Assembly (NCBI GenBank): GCA_964371335.1
Contig: CAYJMC010000001.1
Coordinates: forward strand, 14,648 to 78,647
Reading direction: 5' to 3'
Length of the DNA: 64,000 bases
Origin: an uncultured Anaerolineaceae bacterium
GTDB taxonomy: Bacteria; Chloroflexota; Anaerolineae; Anaerolineales; UBA11579
The notes below the pieces were generated by a model, which saw only the letters and a list, made by a program, of their open reading frames with translations, was not told the origin of the DNA and ran no database searches. Of the stretch, positions 17,666 through 23,458 are shown one piece after another; positions within the stretch are counted from its first letter, which is position 1; each line of letters opens with the position of its first letter. The position numbers were made by a program, and so were the translations under genes.

Positions 17666-19069
17666 ATGAAATACCTTTTTATCACTTACAACGGTTTAGC
17701 TCTTCCGGTAGCGTACAAGCTGCAGCAAGAAGGCCACGACGTGATCGTTGGCCAGATACACGACGTCAAAGATTATGTGATGGAAGAAGAGGTTGACAAT
17801 GCCACCGAGACCGACTTCGCCAAGGGGCGTCGCTTAAATCTTTTCAAAGGCATGGTGGATATCCGGCCTGCACAAGAGATCATCGACATTCTCTTGAAAG
17901 ACGATCCCAAAGGCAATTTTATTTTCTTTGAAGAGAACAACCTGTACCGCTGGGCCGATAAGGTCAGGCACCTCCCCTTGGAGGGCAATTTCCCAACGAA
18001 GGAAGATTTCCTATTTGAGATCGATCGCGACCTGGCCAAGAAGTTCGTCCAGAAGCACTACCCCAGGTTGAACACTCCCGAAGTCAAAGAATTCGATTCG
18101 ATCGAGTCGGGCATCCGCTTCCTGCGCAAGACCCAGGAGGTCTGGGTGCTCAAGGGCCGCGATGACAGCGCGCCCACCTTCGTGCCGGACGTGGACGTCC
18201 CCGACCTGGCCAACGCGCAGATCATCGACATGCTGCAGAACTTCCCCTACAAGTATCAGAAGCTCGGCTTCATTCTGGAGCCATTTATTCCCGTCGCCTT
18301 GGAGCTCACGCCAGAGATCATGTTTTACGACGGCGTCCCCTTGTTTTCGACGGTAGGCATCGAGAATAAATCCTTCGGCAGCGGCAACCTCTCCGTTCAA
18401 ACCGGGTGCGCCGAAGACCTGGTGTTCCCAACCTACTTAGAAGACAGGATCAACCGCATTTCCTTCCCGCCTATCGTCTACGAAATGGCCAAGCAACACA
18501 AAGGCCTCTTTATTTGGGACGCGTCGATTTTGGTGAGCAAGAAGGATGGAAAATTATTCTTCGGCGAATTCTGCAGCAACCGCCCCGGCTACAACTCCTT
18601 CTTCACCGAGTTGGCGCAATGCAAATCGGTTGGCGAATTCTTCGAGTCTTCCATCGCCAAGGAGCCCGCTCTCAAGCCCGGCACCGTCGGCACCTCCGTA
18701 CGCGTCTTCAATATGAACCGCGACGAAGACACCGAACAGATCTCCGAAAATCTCATCGTGAACTACAAGCCGGAAATCGAAAAGGACCTTTGGCTCTGGG
18801 ATGTGAAACGCGATGAAAAGAAGAGGATTGTCACCGCCGGCTGTGATTGGAATTTGTGCATCCTCACCGGGTCCGGGAAATCCATTAACGAAGCGATTTA
18901 CAGGACCTATAAGAACATCGATGGCTTATCTTTCGTCGGCTCTTATTACCGTTCCAAGCACGATTTCGTATCGCAGGAATATCCCACTTCGATCTTGAAT
19001 CGCCTGAACTACGGCCTGGAGCGCGGCCTCTATCGCCTGCCCTTTGACGTAAGGGTGGGTGCTATATAA
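17666..19069 (+). CDS. Divergent ATP-grasp enzyme, PurD-like architecture, function unknown
   Basis: N-domain MKYLFITYNGLALPVAYKLQQEGHDV resembles PurD_N. The central VWVLKGRDDSA and SGNLSVQTGC, and the C-part GLFIWDASILVSKKDGKLFFGEFCSNRPG, parallel PurD blocks but are too diverged for an orthologue. Confidence 0.5.
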   Translation: MKYLFITYNGLALPVAYKLQQEGHDVIVGQIHDVKDYVMEEEVDNATETDFAKGRRLNLFKGMVDIRPAQEIIDILLKDDPKGNFIFFEENNLYRWADKVRHLPLEGNFPTKEDFLFEIDRDLAKKFVQKHYPRLNTPEVKEFDSIESGIRFLRKTQEVWVLKGRDDSAPTFVPDVDVPDLANAQIIDMLQNFPYKYQKLGFILEPFIPVALELTPEIMFYDGVPLFSTVGIENKSFGSGNLSVQTGCAEDLVFPTYLEDRINRISFPPIVYEMAKQHKGLFIWDASILVSKKDGKLFFGEFCSNRPGYNSFFTELAQCKSVGEFFESSIAKEPALKPGTVGTSVRVFNMNRDEDTEQISENLIVNYKPEIEKDLWLWDVKRDEKKRIVTAGCDWNLCILTGSGKSINEAIYRTYKNIDGLSFVGSYYRSKHDFVSQEYPTSILNRLNYGLERGLYRLPFDVRVGAI

Positions 19070-19246: not shown

Positions 19247-19255
19247 GACTTCAAG

Positions 19256-19292
19256 ACTTCAGGACGTCAGAACTTCAGGACGTCAGGACGTC
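19256..19292. repeat. Tandem 16-mer carrying GACGTC palindromes
   Basis: ACTTCAGGACGTCAGA ACTTCAGGACGTCAGG ACGTC. Starts 2 nt after the rpmF stop. Confidence 0.8.
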
Positions 19293-19479: not shown

Positions 19480-19617
19480 TGCTTCTTACCTGTTTCCTTG
19501 GACTTTCACTCGATTATATCCAACAAAATACCTGCGTTGGGCAGGTTGGGAGATTATACTAGGTGGCAAGGACGGGGTCAAGAGTTGTGCTGACAGAGGT
19601 TCTGTTAGGAGTGATTT

Positions 19618-20076
19618 ATGGGCGTGTATAAAGATTCGATAGATGTACTTCGCCAAACCGTCGAACGGGTCCATCATTCCAAGGCGAAATACAAAGAAAA
19701 GGTCTTCGTGCGCGAACTCCACGATGGCGATTTGGTTTGGGAAGGCGATGTTTTTATTTTCGAGCTCATGTATGACACCCAGCACAGCGGGGCCACCAAG
19801 GAACAGATCGAAGGCTGGCGGCTGCAGGGGCCCACGGCAAAAGCAGTGAAGGCCGCCGAGGACCGCGGCCAGAGGATCCGCGAGGCGCTGCAAAACGCCC
19901 ATGCTGAACACGGCGAGCCGCTGCGCAAAGCCAAGCTGGCCTACGCCTGGTCCTCACACGTCAAAGGCAGCGACAAGCGCAAGTTCCACGCCGTGTTGCA
20001 TCGTGGGAAGGTGAAATCGGCCGCCGACGCGGTGAAGGTAGCCATGGGGAAGGAAAAGCGAAAAAGGAAGAGGTGA
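19618..20076 (+). CDS. Unknown-function protein, tandem paralog 1
   Basis: AGGAG RBS. 77/146 identical residues to the next gene in my ungapped hand alignment. Shared blocks YDT.HSGATKEQI..WRL.GP and AKLAYAWSS..KGSD. Confidence 0.6.
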   Translation: MGVYKDSIDVLRQTVERVHHSKAKYKEKVFVRELHDGDLVWEGDVFIFELMYDTQHSGATKEQIEGWRLQGPTAKAVKAAEDRGQRIREALQNAHAEHGEPLRKAKLAYAWSSHVKGSDKRKFHAVLHRGKVKSAADAVKVAMGKEKRKRKR

Positions 20077-20259
20077 GAGTGCTTAGTTGTCTCAGCATGG
20101 TGCGTGCATTGGTGGCGAAAACTGCGCCCACCGTCATTTATGAGAAAGGCTTACGCCAGCGTTACCTGGAAGGAATGTAGGATACACTAGGTGGTTGAGC
20201 GGGGTAATGCAAGGAGAAAGGGGTTCTGCGAAACATAGGGGTTATCAGTAAGGAGCGAA

Positions 20260-20700
20260 ATGAGCGCGTTCAAGGATTCGGTAGAAACACTTCGCCTCAC
20301 TGTCGAAAAACTTTATCATGCCAATGCCAGATTCAAAGATAAGAAGTTTGTGCCCGAGGTGCGGGAAGGCGATGCCAAGTGGGAGGGCAATGTCTTCTCC
20401 TTTGGGCTTTTCTACGACACCAAACACAGCGGCGCCACCAAGGAGCAGATAGCCAACTGGCGGCTGCCCGGCCCCAGCGCCGAGGGCTTGGACGCCGCCG
20501 TGAAGCGCGGCCTGAAGCTCAGGAAGCAGTTGCTGGAGAGCACCACCCGCACCCCGGAGATCAGGCGCCGGGCGAAATTGGCCTACGCCTGGTCCTCGCG
20601 CATCAAGGGCAGCGACGAGCGCCAGTTGAACGTGGTGCTGCATGAAGGGGCAGTGAAATCAGCCGTCGATGCGGTGAGGTCGGTGATTGCGAAGGGTTAG
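20260..20700 (+). CDS. Unknown-function protein, tandem paralog 2
   Basis: AAGGAG RBS. Paralog of 19618-20076. Confidence 0.6.
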   Translation: MSAFKDSVETLRLTVEKLYHANARFKDKKFVPEVREGDAKWEGNVFSFGLFYDTKHSGATKEQIANWRLPGPSAEGLDAAVKRGLKLRKQLLESTTRTPEIRRRAKLAYAWSSRIKGSDERQLNVVLHEGAVKSAVDAVRSVIAKG

Positions 20701-20725
20701 TTCGCTTGTAAATGGAAATTACCCT

Positions 20726-21436
20726 CTAAGCCACCCGTATAACTTCACCGAGCAGTGCGTCAATGGCCTGAGAAAAATCAATTTGAGTCGAATTTGGCAG
20801 GCTTTCTTTCGCACGAATTTGTGTATGAAGATATAAGTCCGACAGTTTCCTCGATGAAGCTTCTAAGTTACTCATCAAATCATGGAAAGATTTTCCCCCG
20901 CCGCCATAGTTGTTGGCAACTTCACCGAAATTCTTGCAATGAAAAATGGGAGGAACGTGATCAAGCATGGATCTTACGAGCATCCCAACAGAAAAGTAAT
21001 TCCCTTCATTAAAATTGAAATCTAGTTCTTCGCACAGTCGAATTAGTTTTGAATAATCGAAATTACTCGACTTCAGATTTCTAAGTTCTTCCAAGCGTAG
21101 AGCGGAGATAAAACTTGCACCGATACGAGACCGAACTGGTGTACTAGGTATTGTTTTCGTAAGCTGAACATCTAATTCCTTAATCACTGATGGATGTAAC
21201 CGAAAGTGGCCCTTTCCGATTCCACGCAGGAATCTAGTCGACCTTTGCATACTCTTGGCCAACCGGCTAGTGTTTGGCATAGGTAATCCGGCTATTCCTG
21301 CCCAATGCCCCACGTCGTTGGGTGTAAATGATGCTCGCTCATCAAATTTGTAAAAATAAAACACTAGGAGTTCGACACGTTTTAGCTCTAGCTCCTCCCA
21401 TAGTTTAGTCACTTTAACATATTCTTCGAGCTTCAA
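20726..21436 (-). CDS. Island protein D: winged-helix-like N-domain plus helical C-domain with Rx4H motif
   Basis: TTG start after AAGGTGA. Low GC. N-part FTPNDVGHWAGIAGLPMPNTSRLAKSMQRSTRFLRGIGKGHFRL. C-part has LVRSMLDHVPPIF and SSRKLSDLYLHTQIRAKE. No family recognised. Confidence 0.55.
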   Translation of the reverse strand: MKLEEYVKVTKLWEELELKRVELLVFYFYKFDERASFTPNDVGHWAGIAGLPMPNTSRLAKSMQRSTRFLRGIGKGHFRLHPSVIKELDVQLTKTIPSTPVRSRIGASFISALRLEELRNLKSSNFDYSKLIRLCEELDFNFNEGNYFSVGMLVRSMLDHVPPIFHCKNFGEVANNYGGGGKSFHDLMSNLEASSRKLSDLYLHTQIRAKESLPNSTQIDFSQAIDALLGEVIRVA

Positions 21437-21472
21437 GTTTCACCTTCAACAGAAAATAGGGATGCTCATATT

Positions 21473-21988
21473 CTATTTGTTTGACTTAAGTTTTGCGAAC
21501 GTTTCTTTTACGGCAGGTTTAGGCATGTATGCATAGGATCGAGTTTTTTCATGTTTTTCGCGCGAAAGGTATTTTGGAAACAAGTTTCGTAGAGCGCGGT
21601 TAATGTTTTGTCTACTTGGTGGTGCGATGCCCAAATTGAATCTTATGTATTCGCTAATCGCCCTGTTTATTCCTTCGTGACCCTTGTTGGCTAGGTTGAT
21701 TACAGCCCAGGCCACCTTTTGATCCTCTGACCCAGACTCCCTAATTAAATGATCTGCTGGAATTTCGCTCACCAAATCACTAATCCAATCCGTAGGTTGT
21801 TTTTTGTGGTCTTTTGGGTAATCTTGATCATTAGGGGCAATAGGTAAATCAGGTGCCAAATTCCTTTCTTCAGAAATTGCCAGCCGGTATCTAAGAAATT
21901 CTTGAAAGCCAGCCACCTTGTACTCTGATGGCAACTCCTTCGACATTTCTTCAGCCCATTTTGCTGCTTCTTTCGTTTTTTCGTCCAT
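21473..21988 (-). CDS. Island protein C (171 aa), paralog of B
   Basis: AAGGA RBS. N-terminal ELPSEYKVAGFQEFLRYRL. C-terminal AISEYIRFNLGIAPPSRQNINRALRNLFPKYLSRE...SYAY, which looks winged-helix-like. Confidence 0.55.
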   Translation of the reverse strand: MDEKTKEAAKWAEEMSKELPSEYKVAGFQEFLRYRLAISEERNLAPDLPIAPNDQDYPKDHKKQPTDWISDLVSEIPADHLIRESGSEDQKVAWAVINLANKGHEGINRAISEYIRFNLGIAPPSRQNINRALRNLFPKYLSREKHEKTRSYAYMPKPAVKETFAKLKSNK

Positions 21989-22010
21989 TTTTAACCATCC
22001 TTAATTGAGG

Positions 22011-22526
22011 CTAGCTCTTTTTTAAATTTCTGACGTAAGCAAGTCCTTTGCTTGACAAAGAATACTTATATGCGTTTCCTTCTTCACTTCGAACAAAATA
22101 GGACATGTTTCCAGTAATTGCGCGCCCAATGTTTGGCGCATAGACACTAGGCAGTCTGAGTTTGCTCGTCATGATTGCGGCAACTTCCGGCGGTGTGAGT
22201 GATGTTATGCCGAGTTGGTCTTCTAGAATCCACAGAAGGAGCATTACACGTTCAATCCATGTTCCACCAACTATAATGTCGTGAACTGTGGAAAAATCCA
22301 CATCGGTGTGTAGCACCACCTTCATCATTTCCTCCCGATTATTTTCGTTAATTTGCAGTTTTGACGCGGATCGCCTGATGCTTTCAGCCTGAAGAGTGCC
22401 AAAAGGGTGGGGGTCCAACATTCTCGAAAAGATAACCTCGAATGCCGATGCCCTGAATTCTTCTGGAACGTTTTGCACGAATTCGGCTGCCTTGTTTGCA
22501 ATTTGAGTTATTTTTTCAGCTTCCAT
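22011..22526 (-). CDS. Island protein B (171 aa), paralog of C
   Basis: AGGAG RBS inside the end of gene A (11-nt overlap). N-terminal NVPEEFRASAFEVIFSRML. C-terminal LTPPEVAAIMTSKLRLPSVYAPNIGRAITGNMSYFVRSEEGNAYKYSL. Confidence 0.55.
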   Translation of the reverse strand: MEAEKITQIANKAAEFVQNVPEEFRASAFEVIFSRMLDPHPFGTLQAESIRRSASKLQINENNREEMMKVVLHTDVDFSTVHDIIVGGTWIERVMLLLWILEDQLGITSLTPPEVAAIMTSKLRLPSVYAPNIGRAITGNMSYFVRSEEGNAYKYSLSSKGLAYVRNLKKS

Positions 22527-22908
22527 TTTTCTCCTGCTCGCCGATCAACGCTGCAACTCTGCTAAGACTTGATAAAGGTATTTGATATCGTCCTTTTTGG
22601 GAAACCGAGAGTTTTTGTTTTTCCAACTCCCTTAATTCAGGTTTTACCGTGCCCAAAGGGATGCCGCCGAGATTGGAGATTTCCGTGGGACCCGCATCAT
22701 CCACCTGCCGAAACCCAAGCATATTAAGCGCCTTAACTGCCATCAAAAGGCTGAGGACTTTTTTTCTAGGACTCAGGGAATGGAACGCCGGACTGGGGAC
22801 GACTCCACCGGCATCGGTAAAACTAAAAAGGGGCCTCAGGGTTTCGGCCATCAGCTCCTCAGCAATAACCGCCTCAGAACGTACTAAAGATGATAAACTG
22901 CTTTCCAT
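22516..22908 (-). CDS. Island protein A (130 aa from ATG 22908; ORF track extends to TTG 22986)
   Basis: GGAGG lies 9 nt before ATG 22908, and a strong promoter sits inside the longer ORF. C-terminal GPTEISNLGGIPLGTVKPELRELEKQKLSVSQKGRYQI looks winged-helix-like. Confidence 0.5.
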   Translation of the reverse strand: MESSLSSLVRSEAVIAEELMAETLRPLFSFTDAGGVVPSPAFHSLSPRKKVLSLLMAVKALNMLGFRQVDDAGPTEISNLGGIPLGTVKPELRELEKQKLSVSQKGRYQIPLSSLSRVAALIGEQEKNGS

Positions 22909-22938
22909 GACAATAACCTCCATTGCGAAATCATTTGC

Positions 22939-22968
22939 AGTATATACGAAAGACAAATGTTCTGTCAA
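22939..22968 (-). promoter_or_regulatory. Near-consensus sigma70-type promoter of the island operon
   Basis: Minus strand: TTGACA (22968-22963), 16 nt, TATATA (22946-22941). Alternatively an 18-nt spacer to TATACT. Confidence 0.6.
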
Positions 22969-23257
22969 GGACGAAAACTGCTCCAAATAAGGATGAAATG
23001 TACTCCGCCCAAATGTTCAGTCTTGGGCAAATGATACCATCAATGACACAACTTATTTAGGATAGTGATAAATTAATTATTTTCACCACAGAGTAATTGA
23101 TGAGGCGATAAAACTGGGACACCGACTCTGGGTATCTCAACAGCCCCTATAGTTCCCAGATTGCGATCAAATTCGCATAATTAAGCTTCTGGACTTCTTT
23201 TAATGAAACAGGGGTACGGGCCAAGCTACGGTATTTGGCGATTGCTGACGAGGCATG

Positions 23258-23347
23258 CCGGACCAGGGACGACTCCACCGGCACCGATAAAACTGATAAG
23301 GGCCTCAGGGTTTCGGGCAACATGGCAGAACGATATAACCGCCTCAA
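23258..23347 (-). pseudogene. Decayed duplicate of the 5' part of island gene A
   Basis: About 62 nt at roughly 88% identity (hand alignment) to 22788-22850, with one indel, plus a shared ATAACCGCCTCA block. The reading frame is broken relative to gene A. Confidence 0.6.
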
Positions 23348-23458
23348 AGAGAAATATCCAGGATTATTCGATGTGCAGATGGATAACTATTATATGCATA
23401 TCACATCGCGTATCATTGCTAGCACACAGGCACTTTTGATTGGGAAACTAATCCTCAA

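Follow-up and report, generated by a model that had tools for sequence, protein, structure and literature searches.

HEPN domains are four-helix up-down bundles in which helices 2 and 3 are frequently separated by an insert. Their Rx4-6H motif is found where helix 3 ends or where the loop to helix 4 begins, adjacent to a conserved acidic residue in helix 2, and the motif arginine is usually followed directly by N, D, or H (PMC3710099). The clan includes many noncatalytic substrate binders, the KEN domain with its documented circular permutation, and AbiV and AF0298, which use an alternative histidine from the helix 2-3 insert (PMC3710099). DUF4145 (PF13643) is an accepted, divergent HEPN family. 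Its member RAZR/PD-T7-4 cleaves single-stranded RNA, and changing either R146 or H154 to alanine abolishes defense (PMC13017515); in the sequence of PDB entry 9y9c these residues are the ends of R-I-V-G-N-Q-A-V-H, an Rx7H spacing. Here we compare with these systems the C-terminal domain of gene D, encoded on the minus strand at positions 20726..21436 of a 64,000-nucleotide stretch of DNA (the window) from an uncultured Anaerolineaceae bacterium (assembly GCA_964371335.1, contig CAYJMC010000001.1).

According to the open reading frame (ORF) list and its translation, D is a two-domain protein of 236 amino acids with a TTG start, and an identical copy of the protein is called on 10 metagenome contigs. 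Its C-terminal domain (C-domain; aa 105 to 236 plus the stop codon, 20726..21124, minus strand) belongs to a large unannotated all-alpha family and is a candidate divergent DUF4145-like HEPN domain. Judging from conservation and motif spacing, we assign a probability of about 0.5 to the reading that it represents a divergent DUF4145-like branch of HEPN, acting as a metal-independent RNase-type effector. The domain is plausibly HEPN related, and the HEPN-type catalytic assignment most likely shifts from R155 and H160, the pair put forward in an initial annotation of this DNA, to R196 and H204. The family itself, which is large, unannotated, modular, and horizontally mobile, is a more interesting result than the motif that drew attention to it.

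A large and modular family of C-terminal domains

Counting one representative per 50%-identity cluster, the C-domain (aa ~105 to 236) has 1,711 homologues at E ≤ 1e-3 and 475 at E ≤ 1e-30. Family matches begin at D aa ~105 to 109, and in 244 of 258 retrieved proteins the domain ends 0 to 5 residues from the C terminus. At typically 50 to 60% identity to the domain of D, members occur in Chloroflexota, Acidobacteriota, Cyanobacteriota, Bacteroidota, Pseudomonadota, candidate phyla radiation bacteria, Spirochaetota, and Verrucomicrobiota, as well as in one actinobacterial metagenome-assembled genome (MAG) and one Bathyarchaeia MAG; no homologue was found in phage genomes. Scans of Pfam, NCBIfam, PADLOC, and PHROG returned no match for D or its neighbors, PDB sequence and profile searches gave nothing relevant, and we found no prior description of the family in the literature. 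The sole retrieved member with a domain that is not C-terminal is a 420-aa protein (P0183) in which it occupies residues 76 to 204, with about 216 unannotated residues after it.

What precedes the domain is highly variable. The 310 N-terminal regions fall into 111 unrelated BLAST clusters, 67 of them singletons, and the type found in D forms the largest cluster (31 of 310). Few match Pfam, and those that do carry HNH_repeat, HTH_36, HTH_34, PIN_4, an RNase III-like domain, DUF2321, or a double zinc ribbon. At one locus (L009:6513-7453) a 163-aa N-terminal region and a 150-aa C-domain are encoded as separate ORFs with a 4-nucleotide overlap, which may reflect a naturally split gene or else a frameshift; about 25 other proteins carry this N-terminal type and the C-domain as a fusion.

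Clustering of 1,052 ORFs from 80 genomic loci of the family revealed no universal neighbor and no partner cluster extending beyond a handful of loci, and only subfamily cassettes recurred. Immediate neighbors include HsdS (three times), N6_Mtase, integrases, XRE regulators, HicB, a PF05168 HEPN protein, and an ABC-3C CTD9 protein; HsdM is also among the neighbors, a SIR2-like protein adjoins one member, and HepT and Ymh HEPN genes lie in the flanks of family loci. Some loci are on plasmids, one is a conjugative element that encodes relaxase, TraG, and primase, and another combines a methyltransferase with a DUF262-HNH protein and a Dna2-like helicase. A Bacteroidetes MAG encodes, two genes downstream of its C-domain gene, a RAZR-like protein that has a CxxC zinc ribbon, a PF13643 DUF4145 domain, and the motif IRIIGNIGAH (L046:1692-2324, plus strand), which places a bona fide DUF4145 HEPN near the new family. 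These neighborhoods are typical of HEPN effectors. Nearly always C-terminal, joined to more than 100 unrelated N termini, and scattered among restriction-modification, toxin-antitoxin, and mobile-element genes, the C-domain behaves like an effector module.

Predicted fold and conserved residues

The initial annotation described a helical-looking extra domain at the C terminus of D, with an Rx4H motif, RSMLDH, at aa 155 to 160 (20957..20974, minus strand). Translation gives exactly these positions, and the AlphaFold2 model of aa 104 to 236 is all helical (predicted local distance difference test [pLDDT], 93.8; predicted template modeling score, 0.87), a separate, conserved, effector-like domain with four long helices. 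The second basic and histidine-containing patch, which had been placed at aa 195 to 212, is also present, but its numbering was off by one: SSRKLSDLYLHTQIRAKE corresponds to aa 194 to 211. The long helices span residues 129 to 143, 147 to 160, 182 to 203, and 222 to 235 (helices 1 to 4), with a short helix at 112 to 119 in front of them. Short helices at 162 to 165 and 170 to 175 form the insert between helices 2 and 3, and an 18-residue loop joins helix 3 to helix 4, with H204 as the first nonhelical residue past helix 3. The four long helices, the helix 2-3 insert, and the position of H204 at the end of helix 3 all agree with the published description of HEPN (PMC3710099).

An Rx4-6H match in a single sequence is uninformative, because composition-preserving shuffles produce at least one with a probability of 0.47 for the C-domain (132 residues) and 0.77 for the whole of D; a second match in D, RGIGKGH at aa 71 to 77, is not conserved. 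The RSMLDH motif is real because of its conservation in homologues rather than because of the single-sequence match. Across 256 homologous C-domains, over which all conservation figures were taken, E137, R155, H204, and E231 are 100% conserved; R114, H160, and E211 reach 99%; D127, P162, P163, and D226 reach 98%; R208 reaches 97%; and D159, D200, and Q218 reach 96%. Position 196 is arginine in 92% and lysine in a further 6%. A lack of conservation at R155 and H160, which the initial annotation had named as a sign against its proposal, is thus not what the family displays. Plasmid homologues from Streptomyces and Sphingobium, at 27 to 34% identity, keep R155, D159, H160, the two prolines, R or K at position 196, D200, and H204, and are without R208, E211, and E231; because they are lost in these divergent homologues, the last three residues are not part of the core.

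A Walker A reading of GGGGKS in D was ruled out, as the glycine run is unconserved (68% of members have a gap at position 178) and the spacing does not fit. The G-x-K-S motif sits at the N terminus of helix 3, where it may resemble an anion-binding cap.

Shared landmarks with DUF4145

Helix 2 has RSMLDH at its C-terminal end, ahead of the invariant proline pair. A second conserved element, R196-K-L-S-D200-L-Y-L-H204 (20825..20851, minus strand), occupies the end of helix 3, where HEPN domains have their catalytic motif, and has the Rx7H spacing. In helix 1, E137 (21026..21028, minus strand) aligns with the conserved helix-1 glutamate of DUF4145. The DUF4145 set used for comparison held 25 sequences: 4 database PF13643 proteins, 11 metagenomic relatives, 8 plasmid entries annotated by the Prokaryotic Genome Annotation Pipeline as "DUF4145 domain-containing protein," 1 unannotated Bacillus cereus plasmid ORF, and RAZR. 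Its landmarks read helix-1 Glu-17-R-x3-E (helix 2)-38-R-x2-G-N-x3-H, then helix 4, and those of D read E137-18-R155-x3-D159-37-R196-x2-[A/S/G]-D200-x3-H204, then helix 4. The spacings are 18/4/37/8 in D and 17/4/38/8 in DUF4145.

Alignment of profiles with hhalign recovered the register of these landmarks. A 15-sequence DUF4145 profile gave a P value of 0.004 (probability, 8%), a 12-sequence profile in a separate run gave 0.011 (3.8%), and the 25-sequence profile gave 5.9e-4 (29%) in 50 columns over D131 to D192, a result that was stable with a 346-sequence query profile. Support grew as the DUF4145 profile was broadened, from a P of 0.004 to 5.9e-4, and all controls, consisting of a reversed DUF4145 profile and, for each profile, 44 unrelated family alignments, had P values of ≥0.015. 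DUF4145 was the best profile-profile match among about 90 comparisons. In this register R155 and D159 fall on the helix-2 R-x3-E of DUF4145, where H160 has no counterpart, and a low-stringency extension places R196, D200, and H204 on the R, N, and H of the DUF4145 motif. The helix 1-2 halves aligned by themselves with a probability of 44%. Taken with the spacings, these alignments are suggestive of homology between the C-domain and DUF4145. They also supply the helix-2 acidic residue expected of a HEPN domain, in the form of D159, which aligns with the DUF4145 glutamate; the Ex3[KR] form of the HEPN helix-2 motif is not present in D.

A further likeness was seen outside the bundle. DUF4145/RAZR-like proteins end in YVYVxPxKIxxLK right past helix 4, and the C-domain family starts with [YF][VI]xxxR[IL]xEL[RK] before helix 1 (hhalign P, ~0.05), a resemblance that may be fortuitous or may hint at a flanking element that the two share or that has been permuted.

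If the C-domain is a DUF4145-like HEPN effector, helix 1 would supply E137, helix 2 would supply R155-x3-D159 as the equivalent of the HEPN helix-2 acidic motif together with the family-specific H160, and the end of helix 3 would supply a catalytic pair, R196 and H204, in an Rx7H arrangement with a small residue and an aspartate at +3 and +4, as in the DUF4145 R-x2-G-N-x3-H. By analogy with HEPN enzymes, two C-domains would dimerize to form a composite RNA-cleaving site, and targeting or gating of the effector would fall to the variable N-terminal region, which in D is small, helical, and possibly DNA binding. Since the helix-2 acidic residue of HEPN domains adjoins the catalytic motif, R155, D159, and H160 may still contribute to one composite site with the helix-3 motif, much like the alternative histidine of AbiV and AF0298.

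Weighing the alternatives

Several results weigh against a DUF4145-like HEPN assignment. The structure comparison proposed in the initial annotation did not bear it out: Foldseek searches of the PDB gave nothing significant (best E, 0.6 to 0.8, to vinculin-type bundles), and full-length D reached the HEPN entries 2hsb, 6tug, and 9bj7 only at E values of 1.9 to 4.5, although the PDB holds many HEPN structures and RAZR 9y9c is present at least in the PDB sequence copy. The profile comparison with HEPN families, likewise proposed there, came out divided, with the landmark register recovered in DUF4145 at a probability that stays below 30% for the full profile, too low by any accepted threshold for homology. 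The second halves of the two domains, which contain the putative catalytic motif, gave no alignment on their own. The residue match is partial, with A/S-D in D replacing the G-N of DUF4145 and D159 standing in place of glutamate. No Rx4-6H motif occurs at the end of helix 3, where R196-x7-H204 is outside the canonical range and position 202 is histidine in only 37% of family members. The residue after R155 is A (59%), S (19%), or G (12%), none of them polar in the HEPN manner, and that after R196 is K in 64% and N in 24%. HEPN and DUF4145 Pfam models did not match six diverse C-domains (D and five others) even at E ≤ 10, and none of the 258 family members reaches the PF13643 gathering threshold. 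PADLOC-DB v2, which includes PD-T7-4, matched neither the products of genes A, B, C, and D nor two adjacent paralogues at E ≤ 1, NCBIfam and PHROG had no matches for D, and the 80 loci contained no conserved immunity or antitoxin partner. Comparisons by hhalign with single HepT, Ymh, DUF4145-like, and other HEPN-looking neighbors also gave no signal, and these were without power because HEPN-versus-HEPN controls failed as well.

Since the C-domain matches no known sequence or fold significantly, it could be a new all-alpha enzyme or a ligand- or metal-binding fold unrelated to HEPN. Its two R-x3-D-(x)-H motifs, with E137, R208, E211, D226, and E231, would then form an active or binding site of their own, perhaps that of a phosphodiesterase, of another kind of nuclease, or of a module that binds nucleotides or metals. 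The density of conserved charge (about 15 residues within 130 aa, including two histidines and four acidic residues) would suit such a site, as would the putative anion-binding cap at helix 3 and the di-iron and hemerythrin bundles among the weak Foldseek listings. We nevertheless judge this unlikely: the best of the profile-profile comparisons, that with DUF4145, brings the R...H motif into superposition as well, the helix topology and motif position agree with HEPN, and R208, E211, and E231 are the very residues missing from divergent homologues.

Slightly less probable is that the C-domain is noncatalytic, a regulatory, oligomerization, or partner-binding module, with D as a transcription factor of its island and not an effector. 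Several N-terminal partners are of the helix-turn-helix (HTH) type (HTH_36, HTH_34, and MarR-named), D-type proteins follow small, possibly winged-HTH-like genes within an operon, an antitoxin-like partner is not conserved, and the HEPN clan has its many substrate binders without catalysis (PMC3710099). Against this stands the retention of invariant Arg, His, Asp, and Glu from Bacteria to Archaea at about 50% identity, which argues for chemistry on a universal substrate and not for a lineage-specific partner, and the more than 100 unrelated N termini, PIN and RNase III-like among them, resemble those of a shuffled effector.

The original proposal, that R155-x4-H160 is itself the HEPN catalytic motif, is improbable, even though a KEN-like circular permutation (helix order H2-H3-H4-H1) could bring it into place: an invariant Arg/His pair in a helical domain with exact Rx4H spacing did hold up, E137 in the preceding helix could serve as the HEPN acidic residue, and both the KEN permutation and the helix 2-3 insert histidine of AbiV and AF0298 (PMC3710099), which are among the weak Foldseek matches, offer precedents, but the helix that ends in this motif is the second and not the third, its arginine is followed by A, S, or G instead of N, D, or H, and the unpermuted hhalign register, by assigning R155 and D159 to the helix-2 R-x3-E and R196 and H204 to the catalytic pair of DUF4145, disfavors such a permutation.

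The A-B-C-D cassette

D resides in a low-GC island at about 20700 to 23450 (41 to 45% GC, compared with 55 to 63% in the flanks) together with three further genes on the minus strand. Genes C (21473..21988; no family matches) and B (22011..22526) each encode cassette partners of 171 aa. Gene A (22516..22908) encodes 130 aa from an ATG at 22908 and is called at this length on metagenome contigs; its longest ORF begins at a TTG at 22986. Upstream of the gene A ATG, a promoter-like TTGACA-18-TATACT (11/12, a consensus match only; 22939..22968, minus strand) is a candidate promoter for an A-B-C-D operon. A remnant of a second A-like gene lies at 23147..23347 on the minus strand and includes a direct repeat of about 72 nucleotides of the 5' part of gene A (23252-23322 versus 22782-22853, 84 to 91% identity).

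The same cassette occurs on a JGI contig (L094), with identities of 68, 47, 54, and 54% for A, B, C, and D (the A match extending over 130 aa). As this contig likewise carries an A-like fragment upstream of the cassette, the duplication of gene A predates the divergence of the two loci. We interpret D as the last gene of a horizontally acquired four-gene cassette. Elsewhere the D N-terminal type recurs behind small overlapping genes, in the orders [113 or 175 aa][162-163 aa][~239 aa] and [~190 aa][236-241 aa]. Gene B is a near orphan, with only one homologue in 5.8 billion proteins, and is distantly like the 162- to 163-aa gene found directly upstream of D-like genes (L007_162 versus B, E of 3.5e-5; B versus the 163-aa cluster by hhalign, probability of 63%). 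B and C have in common an N-terminal helical motif, A..A....[LV]PEEF[RK]...F.E.L..RL, and C of the L094 contig matches B of the window at an E of 0.002, which suggests that B and C are old paralogues.

The N-terminal region of D (aa 1 to 104; 21125..21436, minus strand) is modeled as helical (residues 3 to 31, 39 to 48, 57 to 72, and 82 to 95), with low confidence over its ~100 residues (pLDDT, 54 to 66), and contains an invariant P54-N55...L59. It is possibly a small HTH-like helical module, although HTH models in Pfam did not match D-type N termini; by hhalign it aligned with the C terminus of the 175-aa cassette protein at a probability of 59%. The initial annotation had treated A to D as sharing a DNA-binding-like module and D as the only one of them with a further domain. 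Mutual BLAST among the four found no significant similarity, hhalign gave weak links only, and no Pfam HTH model matched any of them, so this shared module, and with it the singling out of D, is at present conjectural.

Other features of the window

Two tandem paralogous genes on the plus strand, at 19618-20076 and 20260-20700 (152 and 146 aa), are convergent with D and have host-like GC content. A 131-nucleotide repeat (74% identity) is common to both, their upstream sequences are similar (19540-19566 versus 20168-20194), and neither matched Pfam, PADLOC, NCBIfam, or PHROGs. Directly adjoining rpmF (the L32 gene; 19294-19479, minus strand) at its 3' end is a short tandem array at 19248-19292 with an 8-nucleotide register, made of ACTTCAGG/ACGTCAGA units in four overlapping 21-nucleotide copies. 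An ORF of 467 aa at 17666-19069 (plus strand), unannotated on metagenome contigs, has a subthreshold GARS_C match only (E, 0.05) and possibly encodes an ATP-grasp-like enzyme.

Comparison with known systems

If the C-domain is a DUF4145-like HEPN branch, a domain present in thousands of protein clusters and more than 15 phyla, and lacking any Pfam, NCBIfam, or PADLOC model, becomes readable as an RNase-type effector. HEPN-like catalytic motifs could then depart from the Rx4-6H rule by way of Rx7H, and a conserved Rx4H elsewhere in a domain could mislead motif-based annotation. The low-GC A-B-C-D cassette would be a horizontally acquired, probably conflict-related module and not a set of housekeeping genes. 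The variable N termini would amount to a naturally occurring collection of modules for sensing or targeting, comparable to those of RAZR, CapRel, and Avs proteins. A bolder proposal, which we find possible though doubtful, is that the C-domain defines an unrecognized, widespread effector family of at least 1,700 clusters from Bacteria and some Archaea, in which the two R-x3-D-(x)-H elements of helices 2 and 3 build a new active site, HEPN derived or independent, and more than 100 interchangeable N termini act as sensors or targeting modules; this would be a large class of single-polypeptide immunity or conflict proteins, with the D subfamily regulated by A, B, and C as small, rapidly evolving partners.

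Canonical HEPN RNases (HepT/DUF86, Cas13, Csm6/Csx1, RnlA, and Ymh; PMC3710099) resemble D in their four-helix up-down arrangement, helix 2-3 insert, conserved arginine and histidine, and helix-2 acidic residue, and in their role as shuffled effectors of conflict systems. They differ in carrying R[NDH]xxxH where helix 3 ends, whereas the only Rx4H of the C-domain is in helix 2, and D is without a hidden Markov model or fold match and without an adjacent MNT or other cognate antitoxin. AbiV and AF0298, the HEPN entries that surfaced in Foldseek at nonsignificant E values (1.9 to 4.5), offer a comparison for H160, as both have an additional conserved histidine at the helix 2-3 insert, on the N-terminal side of the classical motif. 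The classical histidine is missing from those families, whereas D keeps an invariant H204 besides H160.

DUF4145 is among the closest known systems. The C-domain is set apart from it by an invariant His160-x-Pro-Pro after helix 2, by a different insert (NNY-G-x-KSF) fused into one long helix 3, and by an 18-residue conserved loop (IRxKExLPxxxQV) ahead of helix 4. In common, the two have an all-alpha domain placed at the C terminus of modular proteins with varied N termini, a helix-1 glutamate, an R-x3-acid in helix 2, and an R-x2-small-[N/D]-x3-H of Rx7H spacing where helix 3 ends, and both families are found in defense and mobile contexts.

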